DNA from: Candidatus Auribacterota bacterium
GTDB taxonomy: Bacteria > Auribacterota > JAFGBW01 > JAFGJP01
NCBI GenBank assembly: GCA_023144635.1
Contig: JAGLFH010000037.1
Span: 26,489 to 90,488, forward strand
Direction of reading: 5' to 3'
Length of the DNA stretch: 64,000 bases
A model generated the notes under the pieces. That model had not been told where the DNA came from. It made no database searches and was given only the letters and a program-made list of their open reading frames with translations. The stretch's first letter is position 1, and every line of letters begins with the position of its first letter. The translations under genes were made by a program, and so were the position numbers. Below, one piece after another: positions 274 through 55,515 of this stretch.

Positions 274-1371
274 TTAATTGTTAACTTTATGAAACTTCTT
301 TTGTGAACTTTTTTCTCTTTTTCCCCATGTGAGAAACTTTCTTTTAACCTGAAAGCCATTACTCTTGAGAAATTTCACCATACCAGTCTTTGTCACAAGA
401 TGCCCAAAGCCTATTGCAATAAAAGCATTTCCTTTATTAAGATAAGGTAAAACCGCTCTGTTCATACGGTGATTTCTTTCAGTATATATTTTTTCATATA
501 GTTCTTTAGTCTCATTTTTTGAAATGCTTTCGATTAAAACATCTTCGATCTTTTTTACGTTCCCGCTAACATAAAGGTTCTTTAACTGAACCAGTTCCTT
601 TTTAGTTTTAGGATCAACAGATTCTTCAAGAAAAGTTTCTTGAATTTTTGGAGAAAGCTCCTCAAAATAAGATACCTGATCATCTACAGTTTCAAGCCCG
701 ACAGTTTTTATTTTATTTTTCTGAGCCAGTTGTATTACATAAAGATCCATTGGCAGATCCAGTAAATTAATAAATTCCTGACTCTGGAACTGTTGTGCAA
801 GCATACCAAGGTACCATGGCTTACATTTATTAGTAAACTGGCGAGGTAATCCAAACTTTGAAAAGAACCTCATTACTTTTGAATATAATTGCTGTGAGAT
901 AGATGTTTTTAATGTCTTATTGCCTTTAAACTGACCTGCAACACTTATTTTATTAAGTGCTTCAGAAAAATCATTTATTTCTACGATTATGACATCACTT
1001 GATATTATTTTTTTTCTTAAATTCCTAAGATATGAACCCGGAAGAATGTGCATAGTTCCAAAAAGAATGCTTTTTTTTCCATTTTTTACTGCTTCCCAAT
1101 AACAGATCTTTTGTTCGTTTTGAGGAGAAGCTGACGAAAAATTAACAGGAAAAAAGAAAACAGATATTAAAAAGATAAACAAAAATACAATACGTGAAAT
1201 AAAAAAATGAACAAACTTGCGTTTACCCGCCTCCGCAACGGATATGCTTCGGCGAGATTTCACAGAGTAGATGCGTGAAGTGCCATGGGTGACTGCCTTA
1301 AACTTTGTCGAAGGGTTAGCTTGTGAGGTTTCATTATTATGTTGATTATTTAGCATCTTTAATTGATTCAT
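274..1371 (-). CDS. TraB/GumN family protein
   Basis: 365-aa ORF; motifs LFGTMHILPGSY and AIGFGHLVTKTGMVKFLKSNGFQV resemble the TraB/GumN family; N-terminal hydrophobic segment. Start may be a downstream Met (overlaps the upstream PilZ gene by 26 nt). Confidence 0.6.
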   Translation of the reverse strand: MNQLKMLNNQHNNETSQANPSTKFKAVTHGTSRIYSVKSRRSISVAEAGKRKFVHFFISRIVFLFIFLISVFFFPVNFSSASPQNEQKICYWEAVKNGKKSILFGTMHILPGSYLRNLRKKIISSDVIIVEINDFSEALNKISVAGQFKGNKTLKTSISQQLYSKVMRFFSKFGLPRQFTNKCKPWYLGMLAQQFQSQEFINLLDLPMDLYVIQLAQKNKIKTVGLETVDDQVSYFEELSPKIQETFLEESVDPKTKKELVQLKNLYVSGNVKKIEDVLIESISKNETKELYEKIYTERNHRMNRAVLPYLNKGNAFIAIGFGHLVTKTGMVKFLKSNGFQVKRKFLTWGKREKSSQKKFHKVNN

Positions 1372-1753
1372 GAATAAATTCTTCTAAAGTTATTTTATCT
1401 ATATCATCTATGTTTAAAAACTGAATTCCAATAGCATATTTTTTTTCTATTTCGTCAAGGCGCGACCAGACTACCTGTCCTAGAACATTTATGATCTTAC
1501 AGTCAGAATATATAGGTAAAGTTAATTTCATTTTTATATATTTTCCAGCCTTGATCCTTAAGGGAAGCTTTAGCTGAACACCGCCAGCACTTATATTGTT
1601 CGTATATGCATACTGCGAAAGGCCTTCTTCTTTAAGATTGTCTTTATCATATCCACATTCTTTAAAGCGTACAGGGAAAGAAAAAGGAATACGCGTGTAT
1701 TGCCTGCGTTCATTAATTGAATATGAATCATTCTTCTCGAGATTTTTATCCAT
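1346..1753 (-). CDS. PilZ domain protein (putative c-di-GMP binding)
   Basis: 135 aa; RRQYTRIPF ... NISAGGVQL ... GIQF matches the PilZ RxxxR / DxSxGG pattern. Confidence 0.65.
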   Translation of the reverse strand: MDKNLEKNDSYSINERRQYTRIPFSFPVRFKECGYDKDNLKEEGLSQYAYTNNISAGGVQLKLPLRIKAGKYIKMKLTLPIYSDCKIINVLGQVVWSRLDEIEKKYAIGIQFLNIDDIDKITLEEFIHESIKDAK

Positions 1754-5774: not shown

Positions 5775-5806
5775 TACACGGGCACAGCACGCTGTGCCCC
5801 TACTAC
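5775..5806 (+). repeat. REP-like hairpin unit (GTAG-palindrome on complementary strand)
   Basis: tacacGGGCACAGCacGCTGTGCCCctactac; 9-bp arms. Confidence 0.65.
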
Positions 5807-6023: not shown

Positions 6024-6060
6024 TTCACACGGACAGGGACAAGCCCTGTCCCTACATACT
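6024..6060 (+). repeat. REP-like hairpin unit
   Basis: cacacGGACAGGGacaagCCCTGTCCctacatac. Confidence 0.7.
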
Positions 6061-33990: not shown

Positions 33991-34025
33991 GAGTAGGGTT
34001 CTGGCCTGCCTGAACCGTGTAAAAG
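33991..34025 (-). repeat. REP-like hairpin unit (inverted orientation)
   Basis: Plus strand gaGTAGGGTTCtggcctgcctGAACCgtgtaaaag; identical core at 43158-43187. Confidence 0.6.
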
Positions 34026-43154: not shown

Positions 43155-43190
43155 ATGTAGGGTTCTGGCCTGCCTGAACCGTGTAAGATA
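43155..43190 (-). repeat. REP-like hairpin unit (inverted orientation)
   Basis: atGTAGGGTTCtggcctgcctGAACCgtgtaag. Confidence 0.6.
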
Positions 43191-43200
43191 GTGAAAAAGT

Positions 43201-43235
43201 AAGTAGGGGCGCTGCTTGACTGCGCCCGTGTAAAA
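43201..43235 (-). repeat. REP-like hairpin unit (inverted orientation)
   Basis: aaGTAGGGGCGCtgcttgactGCGCCCgtgtaaaa; same GGGCGC/GCGCCC stem as 25785-25805 in opposite orientation. Confidence 0.65.
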
Positions 43236-44584: not shown

Positions 44585-44911
44585 TTACTTCAAACGGGCA
44601 ATCTTAATAGTTGTCTGGGTACCATTCCCCCAAGGCCAAAACATTGCTATAACCGTACCCTCATCAAGAGATTTCGAATATAAGGTCTGGTTTCTTGAAA
44701 CACCACCGAAATCATCAGTTAATTTAAGAACCTCTTTACTGGGTGAAGTTCCTGCAGGTTTTGCAGCATCACCAAGAAGTGAAGCACATGCTTCGTGCCA
44801 CTTGTCTATTTCAGTATTTGCAACAACTACTTCTATATATTCATCAGAATTAGCTCTTTCTTCATGTATTTTTAACCCACTGCACTTTTCAAGGATCTCT
44901 TTAATATTCAC
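44585..44911 (-). CDS. hypothetical protein (108 aa)
   Basis: Well-spaced ORF between tsaC and cspA; no recognisable motif. Confidence 0.45.
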   Translation of the reverse strand: MNIKEILEKCSGLKIHEERANSDEYIEVVVANTEIDKWHEACASLLGDAAKPAGTSPSKEVLKLTDDFGGVSRNQTLYSKSLDEGTVIAMFWPWGNGTQTTIKIARLK

Positions 44912-44990
44912 ATTAAGTCTCTCTTATTGAAGTTTTATGTTTTAGATAAATCACTATTTGAAAAAAAGTATAAACAAGTTTGTTTACTAA

Positions 44991-45019
44991 AAAAGCCCGA
45001 CTAATTAGCCGGGCTTTTT
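44991..45019. terminator. bidirectional intrinsic terminator downstream of cspA
   Basis: aaaaagcccgactaattagccgggcttttt: GC stem flanked by an A-run and a T-run. Confidence 0.6.
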
Positions 45020-45032
45020 ATTTATTTTTTGC

Positions 45033-45233
45033 TTATAATTTTACTACGTTTTTGGCTTGTTCTCCTTTGGGGCCCTCTTCAACATCAAATTCAACATCCT
45101 GACCCTCTTCCAAAGATTTATAGTCATCACCCTGAACAGCAGAAAAATGTACGAATACATCGTTTCCTTCTTCAGGAGTAATAAATCCATAACCCTTTTT
45201 GTTGTTGAACCATTTTACCTTACCCTTTGCCAT
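45033..45233 (-). CDS. cspA: cold-shock protein (CspA family)
   Basis: ORF track starts at 45263; ATG at 45233 follows AGGAGG (8-nt spacer) and gives [18 protein letters not shown]...DVFVHFSA (RNP1/RNP2 motifs); bidirectional terminator hairpin at 44991-45019. Confidence 0.9.
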
Positions 45234-45371
45234 TACAACTACCTCCTTTTTACTATTTACCACACAGAGTATAAGAATAAAAAAGCGGTATATAATCTTT
45301 ACTCTATTTAATACTAATAATATAGTGCAAAATATTTATGCTTTTTGTCAATAAAATAAATCAAGAAAACA

Positions 45372-46214
45372 TTATTCTAAAAAAACTTTTACCTGTGATC
45401 CTCTACCGTGAGCAAATGAAAAAACAACATCACTTGCACCTTGAGGAATTGGTACATTAAAAATATTTTTTCCCTGAGATAAACGTCCATTCTGAGCATA
45501 GGGATGCCATGCGCCATTATAATAAACTTTAATCGTATTTATTATTATTGCATGCTTTTCAGTAATATTGACATCTACAATTATCTTTGAAAAACTTCTG
45601 CCACCCGTATAAGCACTTACATTATACTTTCCAACTTTTTTATCATAATTAGCCTTAGTAAAAGAAGCGATCAAAACCTGCGAACTATGTTTTTTTACAA
45701 TAGGATTGTGACTTGATTTCTGACGTGTACAACCGGGACAACTGCTATTATTTGAACCATACCATCTTTTGCAATGAGTACAACGTATACTGGGGTTTGA
45801 AGAATGAGAAAGACTTACATCAAAACCTTGTCTGCAATGCGGGCAATTAACAAAAAATTGATCAGTGTTCAGTTTTCTTCCGCAATTAACACAAAAAGAA
45901 CTATTAGACTTATTACGCGCTCCACAATTCTGGCAAAGAGCAATCGTATTACTTGTGTTTAAACCAAAATTTCTGTGACAATGCGGACAATATACATTTT
46001 GAGAATATGATGAATTTGTTGATGATGTTAGTTTTGCACCACACCCCGCACAATAATTAGCATTAGATTTATTCTGGTAACGGCAGCTCGGGCATTCATA
46101 ACCCGATCGGTTACTTTGTGATCCTTGATTAAATATATCCAGCCATGAATTGTCTGCAACAACAACAGGCACTATTAAAAAACAAATTAATAAAGTAAAA
46201 ATTATTTTTTTCAT
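45372..46214 (-). CDS. secreted protein with four to five tandem zinc-ribbon (CxxC...CxxC) modules and C-terminal beta-rich domain
   Basis: ORF track starts at 46295 inside a repeat region; ATG at 46214 follows GGAAGGA SD and gives signal peptide MKKIIFTLLICFLIVPVVVA; repeated CPSCRY...CAGCG, CPHCHR...CQNCG, CVNCG, CPHCRQ...CTHCKR...CPGC. Confidence 0.55.
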   Translation of the reverse strand: MKKIIFTLLICFLIVPVVVADNSWLDIFNQGSQSNRSGYECPSCRYQNKSNANYCAGCGAKLTSSTNSSYSQNVYCPHCHRNFGLNTSNTIALCQNCGARNKSNSSFCVNCGRKLNTDQFFVNCPHCRQGFDVSLSHSSNPSIRCTHCKRWYGSNNSSCPGCTRQKSSHNPIVKKHSSQVLIASFTKANYDKKVGKYNVSAYTGGRSFSKIIVDVNITEKHAIIINTIKVYYNGAWHPYAQNGRLSQGKNIFNVPIPQGASDVVFSFAHGRGSQVKVFLE

Positions 46215-46275
46215 ATCAAATCCTTCCTTCGGGGTTTGCCGCGTCGCATCTCCTCGCAATGACAACATTTTACGT

Positions 46276-46312
46276 TTTATAGCGGGAGGAGGCAAGCACC
46301 TCCCCTACATAC
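46276..46312 (+). repeat. REP-like hairpin unit
   Basis: tagcGGGAGGaggcaagcaCCTCCCctacatac. Confidence 0.55.
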
Positions 46313-46360
46313 ATTTATTTTTTCTCTTTTCTATTCGCCGTTAATTCGTGGTTCCTTATT

Positions 46361-46395
46361 TTTTACACGGTACGGGCAAGCCCGCACCCTACTCA
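46361..46395 (+). repeat. REP-like hairpin unit
   Basis: ttttacacGGTACGGGCaaGCCCGCACCctactcac. Confidence 0.6.
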
Positions 46396-46502
46396 CATTT
46401 TACTTTCATCATGAACCCTATGTGGTTCATGCCCCTTTTGTGTCCTTCCCTTTGATTTACTTTATTCACTCAGGACAGGATGGCGGTGAATTTTATAATA
46501 AT

Positions 46503-46557
46503 CGCACGAAGTGCTCCTTGAACCAATTAACTTTTTAACCAGCTAACTAATTAACTG
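46503..46557 (-). repeat. intergenic repeat module (CAGTTAATTGGTT... family, inverted)
   Basis: Reverse complement reads cagttaattagttagctggttaaaaagttaattggttcaaggagcacttcgtgcg. Confidence 0.6.
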
Positions 46558-46683
46558 TTTCCATCTATGTCCGTGCTGAATTTTCATTCTTTTTAAACTT
46601 CTTATACATAGATATAGACGATCAAAACACATAAATATTTCATAAAACAACAGAAATTCGCTGGCAAGGTCAAAGATTAAGAA

Positions 46684-47427
46684 CTAGTATGAACTTCCAG
46701 GATTTTCCTCTCTTTTTTCTAAATATGTAATGTATTTAAAAACTTCTTCCAGCGCTTCAGAATATTCCTTTGAAAACTCCATACCATTCTGATACAACTG
46801 GCCATCCATTACTTTTCTGGAATGCCTTATAATTCCTTCAAGTTTGATAGGATTAGGAAAACTTGTAGGTACTATCATTTTCATCCTTATTTGACAGCCT
46901 TCCTTTATTTCTATATCACTGTTAAATAATAATCCACCTGATGATATATCAACTATCTGAGATGTTTTTATACTGCCTGAGCCAAGTTCAATATATTGAA
47001 TAATAACCTGAGATTTTAAACGTTTATAACGGCGGTTTTCATGATTCAAGAAAGAAGCTTTTTCAGCATTCTCTTCTGCATCACCCTTATCGGCACCTAA
47101 ATAATCAAGATAATCATTTATTTCTTCAGTTATCTCCGGAGTATTCTCAGTAAATTTGATTCCAGTATTATACAACATATCCTTCATTTTTTCGCGAGAA
47201 TGAAGAACAATTCCTTTTATATTAAGCTTATCAGGATAGCTTGTAGGTACAAGTACATTGATCTCGATTGGAGTGTTTGGGGGATAATCTTTTGCTGTTG
47301 TAAACTGCATTCCGCTTCTACTTATATCAAGAAGCTGGGAAGAGTTAAATTTCTCATCATATAAGCCCTTATAAAAAAGCACTATATGAGTTTCTATGCG
47401 CTCATGTTTTCTGCTAAAATTGCTCAT
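46684..47427 (-). CDS. tandem PilZ domain protein
   Basis: 247 aa; two PilZ-like units (RKHERIETH...DISRSGMQF and RRYKRLKSQ...DISSGGLLF). Confidence 0.65.
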   Translation of the reverse strand: MSNFSRKHERIETHIVLFYKGLYDEKFNSSQLLDISRSGMQFTTAKDYPPNTPIEINVLVPTSYPDKLNIKGIVLHSREKMKDMLYNTGIKFTENTPEITEEINDYLDYLGADKGDAEENAEKASFLNHENRRYKRLKSQVIIQYIELGSGSIKTSQIVDISSGGLLFNSDIEIKEGCQIRMKMIVPTSFPNPIKLEGIIRHSRKVMDGQLYQNGMEFSKEYSEALEEVFKYITYLEKREENPGSSY

Positions 47428-47891
47428 TTTTCCTTTTTACTTTGATTTAAAAGCAACTGCAGTTCACTCATAAACTGATTTATATCCTTAAACTGTCTAT
47501 AGACAGAAGCAAAGCGGACATATGCTACTTCATCTATTTTCTGAAGTTTTTTTATTACCATTTCACCAATAACATCAGACTGGATTTCCTTTAATGCGTT
47601 CCTGTTAATATACTTTTCAATTTCTGTAACTATCTCCTCTATTTGTTCTGTGCTGACCGGTCTTTTTTCACAAGCTCTAGAAATACCACCAAACAATTTT
47701 ACACGGTCAAAATTTTCACGGCTTTTATCTTTTTTTATAACTTTTACAGGAACTTCTTCGGTTTTTTCATAAGTAGTAAACCGACTATCACATTTAATAC
47801 ATTCACGCCTACGCCTTATTTTATCCCCTTCAGGAGAAAGCCGTGAATCTATTACTCTGTCATTGAGATGTCCGCAAAAAGGGCATTTCAT
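47424..47891 (-). CDS. nrdR: transcriptional repressor NrdR
   Basis: 155 aa; MKCPFCGH...RVIDSR zinc ribbon plus ATP-cone (VIKKDKSRENFDRVKL). Confidence 0.92.
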   Translation of the reverse strand: MKCPFCGHLNDRVIDSRLSPEGDKIRRRRECIKCDSRFTTYEKTEEVPVKVIKKDKSRENFDRVKLFGGISRACEKRPVSTEQIEEIVTEIEKYINRNALKEIQSDVIGEMVIKKLQKIDEVAYVRFASVYRQFKDINQFMSELQLLLNQSKKEK

Positions 47892-48082: not shown

Positions 48083-48120
48083 CATACACGGGCGTATTGC
48101 AATACGCCCCTACTAACTTT
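48083..48120 (+). repeat. REP-like hairpin unit
   Basis: cacGGGCGTATTGCAATACGCCCctactaac; identical to 13990-14009. Confidence 0.75.
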
Positions 48121-48155: not shown

Positions 48156-48195
48156 TTTCACACGGACAGGCACAGAGACCTGTCCCTACATATAT
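48156..48195 (+). repeat. REP-like hairpin unit
   Basis: cacacGGACAGGcacagagaCCTGTCCctacata; identical core at 55483-55504. Confidence 0.7.
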
Positions 48196-55476: not shown

Positions 55477-55515
55477 TTACACGGACAGGCACAGAGACCT
55501 GTCCCTACATGCGTT
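55477..55515 (+). repeat. REP-like hairpin unit
   Basis: ttttacacGGACAGGcacagagaCCTGTCCctacatgcg. Confidence 0.7.

Follow-up and report, generated by a model that had tools for sequence, protein, structure and literature searches.

A predicted exported protein joining a probably nested zinc-ribbon array to a jelly-roll domain in Candidatus Auribacterota

Zinc ribbons are normally regarded as cytoplasmic modules, and in the bacterial DZR and Zn_Ribbon_1 proteins, soluble or membrane-anchored, the ribbons are found in the cytoplasm. Jelly-roll beta-sandwiches are displayed by carbohydrate-binding modules (CBMs) such as CBM6, CBM35 and CBM32, by GH29 alpha-L-fucosidase and by an Akkermansia beta-N-acetylhexosaminidase (8pxt). 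A third group of relevance comprises the exopolysaccharide machines controlled by cyclic di-guanosine monophosphate (c-di-GMP), which pair periplasmic CBM-like proteins with PilZ domains, as in AlgX/Alg44 (PilZ) and BcsB/BcsA-PilZ. Here we describe a gene from a 64,000-nucleotide (nt) stretch of a metagenome-derived Candidatus Auribacterota genome (assembly GCA_023144635.1, contig JAGLFH010000037.1, positions 26,489 to 90,488), referred to below as the window. The gene encodes a protein of 280 amino acids (aa) in which a putative signal peptide, an array of zinc-ribbon knuckles and a predicted jelly roll follow one another.

The window protein has the same CPxC...CxxCG knuckles as the DZR and Zn_Ribbon_1 proteins, the same 10-residue spacing, and scores above the thresholds of these families. 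It differs from them in that its ribbons follow a predicted Sec-type signal, in that one ribbon appears to be split around another, a layout that has no counterpart in those proteins, and in that the array is fused to a jelly-roll domain. With the CBMs and the glycosidase sandwiches it has the modeled jelly-roll fold in common; unlike these enzymes it has no catalytic domain, and the likeness is one of fold, not of sequence. Thus known parts, ribbons and jelly roll, are found in a new and rare combination, and both the split layout and the placement behind a signal are atypical for ribbon families.

We lean toward reading the product as an exported envelope or surface protein with a metal-bound ribbon array and a ligand-binding jelly roll, whose use is controlled by c-di-GMP. 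Sec export would bring the protein to the cell envelope or surface, where the knuckles would fold into four Cys4 sites, most likely holding zinc, with the split ribbon clasping the third. Outside of the cytoplasm these sites would stay reduced and metal-loaded, as would be allowed by a host phylum inferred to be anaerobic and sulfide-producing. The jelly roll would be a ligand-binding head, probably for a glycan or other surface polymer, and the array a compact metal-stabilized stalk or a protein-interaction module. Such a role is consistent with the presence, in other family members, of unrelated helical or beta modules at the position of the array, and with a variable charged linker. Because PilZ and GGDEF genes recur beside the gene, it is proposed that the protein would serve a c-di-GMP-controlled surface program, e.g., attachment or matrix formation. 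The inference on the phylum, that it is anaerobic, fermentative, and H2- and sulfide-producing, is from a study of Auribacterota metagenome-assembled genomes (MAGs) (PMC9324843). A bolder form of the same reading would make the array a new extracytoplasmic Cys4 metal module of strict anaerobes, either a metal-dependent stalk or a rubredoxin-like relay, placed on an undescribed lectin-like domain and deployed in connection with c-di-GMP; this we consider improbable.

The features of the gene and its product are as follows.

45372 to 46214, minus strand: whole gene, 280 codons and a stop, from the open reading frame (ORF) and its translation, with an identical deposited protein.
46155 to 46214, minus strand: predicted signal peptide, residues 1-20 (MKKIIFTLLICFLIVPVVVA), with predicted cleavage after VVA and before D21, from sequence anatomy and family conservation.
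46131 to 46148, minus strand: motif SWLDIF, residues 23-28, right after the predicted cleavage site (alignment A4).
46041 to 46094, minus strand: ribbon 1, C41xxC44, 10 residues, C55xxC58, from Pfam DZR and RanBP-type matches and conserved spacing.
45978 to 45989, minus strand: first half of the putative split (outer) ribbon, C76xxC79, from co-occurrence with C124xxC127 and a predicted hairpin (strands 71-75/82-86).
45882 to 45935, minus strand: inner ribbon, C94xxC97, 10 residues, C108xxC111, from a Pfam Zn_Ribbon_1 match at residues 94-115.
45834 to 45845, minus strand: second half of the putative split (outer) ribbon, C124xxC127, from co-occurrence and a predicted hairpin (strands 119-123/130-134).
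45729 to 45782, minus strand: ribbon 4, C145xxC148, 10 residues, C159xxC162, with Y152 invariant (alignment A4 and spacing).
45678 to 45728, minus strand: polar linker of 17 residues, 163-179, with low model confidence and variable in alignment A4.
45375 to 45677, minus strand: predicted eight-strand jelly-roll beta-sandwich, residues 180-280, from AlphaFold, Foldseek and profile search.

The first Cys of the eight CxxC motifs is at residues 41, 55, 76, 94, 108, 124, 145 and 159, which makes 16 ribbon cysteines. The Pfam models DZR (PF12773), Zn_Ribbon_1 (PF13240) and Zn_ribbon_15 (PF17032) score 45.4 bits (gathering cut-off 27.3; E 9e-12), 35.7 bits (cut-off 25) and 32.4 bits (cut-off 28.9), respectively, and since all three exceed curated thresholds, the CxxC pattern is not due to chance. 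All 16 ribbon cysteines are invariant in the two closest homologues, which display 33-34% identity overall, and the 11-sequence ribbon alignment A6 shows little or no variation at these positions; this alignment comprises 10 of the 11 eight-knuckle members and the six-knuckle P0032, and omits the ten-knuckle relative of the window protein, P0004. The spacing between knuckles (10, variable, 14, 10, 12, 17 and 10 residues) is kept to within 1-2 residues by 10 of the 11 eight-knuckle members, and only P0030 departs from it, with 10 residues in the place of 14. A simple-ribbon signature, CxxCxxxNx6CxxCG, is found in the three pairs with 10-residue spacing, 41/55, 94/108 and 145/159, and the inner-ribbon cysteines (94-111) are nearly invariant in a 17-sequence alignment.

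The two knuckles outside of these pairs, C76xxC79 and C124xxC127, are either both present or both absent in all 15 family members that have an intact N-terminus. P0032 and the members with eight or ten knuckles have both, and both are missing from the shorter P0010, P0027 and P0028; the N-terminally truncated P0018 has only the equivalent of C124xxC127. In the full-length model each half occupies its own beta-hairpin (predicted local distance difference test score, pLDDT, about 70). We infer that the two halves form one split site that clasps the inner ribbon 94-111. The protein would thus have four Cys4 sites, three simple ribbons and one split, in a layout that is nested and not purely tandem. 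The initial annotation, made from the sequence alone, had proposed four to five tandem zinc ribbons: the CxxC ribbons are real, and the number should probably be set at four Cys4 sites, not five, with one of them nested. That the knuckles bind metal, with zinc the most likely one, is suggested by the same signatures.

With the ribbon region as query, a profile search recovered only generic cytoplasmic multi-ribbon proteins, and a word-indexed homologue search with the ribbon region alone gave zero matches. PDB sequence searches returned RanBP2-type finger matches only, none of them significant, and a literature search found no reports on exported zinc ribbons. This last result is one of the points in favor of a different state of the cysteines, namely that the protein is exported and the cysteines form disulfides, so that the array would be a disulfide-stabilized Cys-rich module with zinc bound at most transiently before oxidation. 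The cysteines are even in number and all conserved, and they would lie in an extracytoplasmic site, where thiol pairs are usually oxidized in aerobes. There is also the example of the small Tim proteins with twin Cx3C motifs, from the mitochondrial intermembrane space, which were first taken for zinc fingers and proved to be disulfide-bonded. Nevertheless the CPxC and CxxCG motifs, in which Gly and Pro are conserved, are typical of metal knuckles, they have ribbon spacings and the DZR and Zn_Ribbon_1 scores stand above threshold, and structural disulfides seldom join both cysteines of one CxxC. It should also be noted that two members were traced to Candidatus Aureabacteria/Auribacterota MAGs (one isolate ‘Zod_Metabat’), i.e., to a phylum inferred to be anaerobic. 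Disulfides are thus an unlikely state for these cysteines, if the least unlikely of the alternatives considered.

The nature of the metal should also be considered. Rubredoxin and zinc-ribbon knuckles resemble each other in sequence, and the knuckle signatures would fit iron as well as zinc. The array could then consist of exported, periplasmic rubredoxin-like centers that form a redox or thiophilic-metal module, relaying electrons or buffering metal, for example. Such a module would be well served by four Cys4 sites lying close together after a signal peptide, and by a host phylum inferred to be anaerobic and sulfide-producing (PMC9324843), a setting in which Fe(II) could be supplied. The linker that follows the array may also have a bearing on metal binding. 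In the window protein, linker residues 164-177 have a pLDDT below 50, and linker length and composition vary across alignment A4; the homologues P0002, P0003, P0009, P0011, P0012 and P0032 display Asp/His-rich runs such as HHDDDDDDDDDDHGHH, or long Arg-Asp or Asp-Arg-Tyr repeats. These expanded linkers look like metal- or mineral-binding low-complexity stretches, and the His/Asp-rich ones count in favor of iron. On the other hand, the rubredoxin family is absent from the Pfam matches at E up to 10, no redox partner or cytochrome genes are found nearby, either in the window or in the homologue loci examined, and other family members replace the array with non-Cys modules, which speaks more for a structural than for a catalytic role. 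We consider iron doubtful, and clearly less probable than disulfides.

The C-terminal domain was modeled by AlphaFold from a 46-sequence alignment as an eight-strand jelly roll with high confidence (pLDDT 96.5; predicted template modeling score 0.87). The beta-rich C-terminal domain that had been noted earlier is thus real, with a length of about 105 residues. A Foldseek search with the full-length model gave 8pxv and 8pxt at E 4e-6, and the best fold matches of the jelly roll are CBMs and the beta-sandwich domains of GH20/GH29 glycosidases, followed at lower rank by GOLD domains, viral jelly rolls and fiber tips. At the sequence level there is no model for this domain in Pfam or NCBIfam, nor any Pfam match to the domain of the window protein at E up to 10, and only 1 of 46 family members touches CBM_6 (E 0.0024). 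Homology to CBM26, raised by a weak profile match to a CBM26-dockerin protein, was rejected: hhalign of the jelly roll against CBM26 repeats gave 66% probability over 21 columns only, i.e., a local motif. The C-terminal domain is CBM-like by its modeled fold and outside every CBM family by sequence.

A profile of residues 176-280 was compared with 1.84 billion representative proteins and gave 52 matches at E <= 0.001. Three of these, the weakest in the list, are doubtful: the CBM26-dockerin protein, an ankyrin protein and a repeat protein. Ten ribbon-bearing clusters were checked and have one or two sequences each; with about 50 representatives in 1.84 billion and clusters of this size the family is very rare. 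Scans of genomic and metagenomic DNA added three loci, two of them short. The jelly roll is always C-terminal, and the protein usually ends in V-x-V-x-L-E; NT, GRN and DHG loops are conserved within the domain. What precedes it varies: a signal peptide alone (e.g., P0015 and P0026), a signal peptide with the ribbon array (about 15 representatives), or a signal peptide with a helical region, with a CPEGxEC motif or with another beta domain. None of seven non-ribbon members was matched in a Pfam scan. The jelly roll is the constant part that defines a tiny, unannotated family of signal-peptide proteins. No characterized family was found for the window protein in Pfam, NCBIfam, PADLOC, PHROGs or PDB sequence searches, which gave generic zinc-ribbon matches only, in agreement with the initial annotation, which had left the function open; in PADLOC (anti-phage defence) there was no match at all, and in PHROGs (phage) the generic ribbon matches were at E 2e-4 or weaker.

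Export is suggested by the N-terminus. MKK (net +2) is followed by a 17-residue uncharged stretch (residues 4-20) with V-V-A at positions -3 to -1 and then by a net charge of -2. The sequence therefore has the positive start, the core of at least 10 residues, the small residues at -3 and -1 and the net-negative mature start of a Sec/signal peptidase I substrate, and alignments show a segment of similar character at the same place throughout the family. Because positive charge precedes the core and net-negative charge follows it, the positive-inside rule places the rest of the protein outside of the cytoplasm. A simple rule-based heuristic for signal anatomy was applied to 50 family representatives and, as controls, to 27 generic multi-ribbon proteins recovered by a profile of the ribbon region. 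It detected signal anatomy in 36 of the 50 representatives, most of the others being fragments or near misses, and in only 2 of the 27 controls. One of these two has two membrane helices before the ribbons, which would return the ribbons to the cytoplasm, and the other is a protein fragment; the nearest generic multi-ribbon proteins either have no signal peptide or carry their ribbons facing the cytoplasm. Within the 27-protein sample, where 25 proteins have none, a Sec-type signal ahead of ribbons is therefore unusual, and the earlier remark that an exported ribbon array is out of the ordinary holds up. The window protein is most likely Sec-exported to the cell envelope or surface, as its proposed description as a secreted protein had it.

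A lipoprotein processed by signal peptidase II was considered and rejected, as the hydrophobic core does not end in a lipobox (L-[AS]-[GA]-C); the conserved C11, which lies in LLIC, ILAC or ILIC, is only 10 residues from the start, and the core runs on past it. Downstream of the predicted cleavage site, the SWLDIF motif corresponds to a family pattern aromatic/hydrophobic-x-D-hydrophobic-hydrophobic, which in relatives reads FxD[IFL][LF] and is followed by a Gly/Asn-rich stretch. It spans the ribbon-bearing subfamily and at least one non-ribbon member (P0014), and a short helix is seen at residues 24-27 in a low-confidence part of the full-length model. The motif may be a sorting or docking signal.

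If the N-terminal segment were instead an uncleaved anchor, the ribbons would be cytoplasmic, as they are in ordinary membrane proteins with zinc ribbons, and could meet the neighboring PilZ proteins. Cytoplasmic ribbons are the rule, as in the generic multi-ribbon proteins recovered here, and the recurring neighbors, PilZ and GGDEF, are cytoplasmic signaling proteins. The charge distribution, however, is opposite to that of such an anchor in the window protein and most relatives, a small-x-small cleavage motif follows the core, some jelly-roll family members consist of a signal peptide and the domain alone, and the closest relatives by fold belong to secreted glycosidases, as domains of these enzymes. 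An anchor is thus very unlikely, more so than iron. Multihaem c-type cytochromes are likewise exported with many CxxC, and the window protein has a signal peptide followed by eight such motifs, but a degenerate cytochrome of this kind is excluded for practical purposes, as only one of the eight is CxxCH (C76PHCH), its His is not conserved in homologues, and Pfam gives no cytochrome family match.

The part of our preferred reading that concerns c-di-GMP is based on gene neighborhoods. On the minus strand of the window the order is glyA, nrdR, a two-domain PilZ gene, a 470-nt gap, the ribbon gene, a 108-nt gap and a cold-shock gene, and both of the direct neighbors named in the initial annotation are as it stated:

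46684 to 47427, minus strand: two-domain PilZ protein of the c-di-GMP receptor type, upstream and on the same strand (Pfam PilZ, 65.3 bits, two stretches).
45033 to 45263, minus strand: cold-shock-domain protein, the downstream neighbor.

Both halves of the PilZ protein carry RxxxR and DxSxxG motifs, as read from the sequence. In locus L004 a 106-aa PilZ gene lies 3 nt downstream of the homologue on the same strand, and in L008 a 106-aa PilZ gene lies 12 nt downstream, also on the same strand. On the L011 and L012 contigs a receiver-PilZ gene is the convergent neighbor of P0010, and on the P0003 contig a receiver-GGDEF gene is directly upstream of the homologue. PilZ or GGDEF neighbors are found in 4 of 7 informative lineages. 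When independent lineages only are counted and direct neighbors are compared with the other genes of the same DNA, with crude PilZ/GGDEF detection, PilZ makes up 3 of 21 direct neighbors and 1 of 79 other genes (Fisher p = 0.028); for PilZ or GGDEF together, p = 0.0066. The comparison of genomic contexts thus gives recurring c-di-GMP genes, but a conserved operon was rejected, as neighbors apart from these genes differ among lineages. The likeness to the Alg and Bcs systems is only an analogy: no polysaccharide synthase is present in the neighborhoods of the family, and the neighboring PilZ proteins are small stand-alone or receiver-fused, in three different architectures. A literature search found no reports on zinc-ribbon/PilZ pairs. 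We regard the association with c-di-GMP genes as a lead, not a finding.

Several points weigh against our reading. There is no PilZ or GGDEF neighbor in three informative lineages: P0004 adjoins folE and a glycosyltransferase, P0007 a radical-SAM gene and a symporter, and P0013 fliD and an outer-membrane-like protein. The association itself comes from 21 neighbor genes only and from crude detection. A second PilZ-like ORF of 135 aa is present in the window (1346-1753, minus strand; E 2.8e-7 against an ad hoc PilZ profile), so that PilZ genes may be fairly frequent in the genome, which weakens the neighborhood statistic. In the window the PilZ gene is coupled to nrdR and is 470 nt away from the ribbon gene, and since PilZ proteins are cytoplasmic, any tie to an exported protein must be indirect. 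As to the array, the pairing of C76 with C124 depends on co-occurrence and on the model of pLDDT about 70, and the literature search gave little precedent for an extracytoplasmic Cys4 site.

Other observations were made on the neighborhoods. The nrdR gene (47424-47891) and the start of the PilZ gene have 4 nt in common (ATGA; 46684-47891 for the two, minus strand), which suggests that a ribonucleotide-reductase repressor and a c-di-GMP receptor are co-translated, an unusual combination. In L007 (696-1067) and on the P0003 contig (gene 2013-2381) a small RF-1-domain gene (GGQ, ArfB-like) follows the homologue; these are related metagenome contigs, and the adjacency is probably inherited gene order and not a functional link. 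In L001 (5640-5993) the Auribacterota homologue adjoins a GT4 glycosyltransferase and a small protein whose N-terminus has a methylation motif like that of type IV pilins, a surface-structure neighborhood without a PilZ gene. Downstream of the cold-shock gene of the window, a 108-aa ORF (44585-44911, minus strand) has no match in Pfam, PADLOC or PHROGs.

The ribbon gene is a real, conserved gene. Its product has an identical deposited counterpart, a hypothetical protein from a Candidatus Aureabacteria MAG, and a Candidatus Auribacterota MAG is the source of a 313-aa relative; no paralogues were found within the window or in the fetched homologue loci. The ATG at 46214 is taken as the start because every full-length relative opens with an MKK or MKR at the corresponding position. 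For the same reason the TTG at 46295, given as a longer start by the mechanical ORF list, is unlikely, and it is disfavored also by the overlap of the added region with an intergenic hairpin element. Two candidate expression signals precede the gene:

46221 to 46229, minus strand: Shine-Dalgarno-like AAGGAAGGA, 6 nt 5′ of the ATG at 46214, read from the sequence.
46267 to 46295, minus strand: promoter-like site TTGCCT, 17 nt, TAAAAT, a weak candidate (9 of 12 matches to the consensus), from a scan alone.

Promoter-like sites show no excess in the scanned region, 11 compared with a mean of 12.4 in shuffled sequence. A riboswitch or other known RNA in the 470-nt leader was rejected: Rfam detected none over the whole window at gathering thresholds and gave zero matches over 46150-46750 at E up to 1, and the fold energy of the leader is ordinary (z = -1.6).

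The same 470-nt gap harbors copies of a dispersed intergenic hairpin element:

46281 to 46392, plus strand: two copies of the element, 46281-46307 and 46366-46392, upstream of the ribbon gene.
Other copies in the window: 5777-5803, 6028-6055, 33993-34019 (minus strand), 43157-43183 (minus strand), 43203-43230 (minus strand), 48087-48113, 48161-48189 and 55480-55508.

The consensus of the element is TTTTA-CACGG-[GC-rich hairpin]-CCCTAC-AYAYWTTTTAC, and the pattern CACGG-hairpin-CCCTAC has 9 exact matches in the window where 0.06 are expected. The flanks are conserved, and the hairpin stems diverge between copies yet remain complementary; copies are often paired, 46-85 nt apart. There is no Rfam entry for the element, which looks like a repeat of the repetitive extragenic palindromic type. 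The flanks of the gene had been described as repeat-rich, which is correct for the upstream gap; in the 108-nt downstream gap there is no copy of the element. Just after the cold-shock gene, at 44990-45019, is a strong hairpin formed by a nearly perfect 15-nt inverted repeat, AAAAAGCCCGACTAA and TTAGCCGGGCTTTTT, 93% complementary, with runs of A and T on either side; it probably acts as an intrinsic terminator in both directions.

The practical value of these results is modest until a ligand or a phenotype is known. If our reading is true, a conserved ribbon array behind a signal peptide would extend zinc ribbons to the cell envelope, at least in anaerobes, and the question would arise of how four-Cys sites in the envelope are loaded with metal and kept reduced. 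A second outcome is the outline of a small family of presumably exported jelly-roll proteins, whose N-terminal modules are interchangeable and which may tie to c-di-GMP surface behavior in poorly known phyla.

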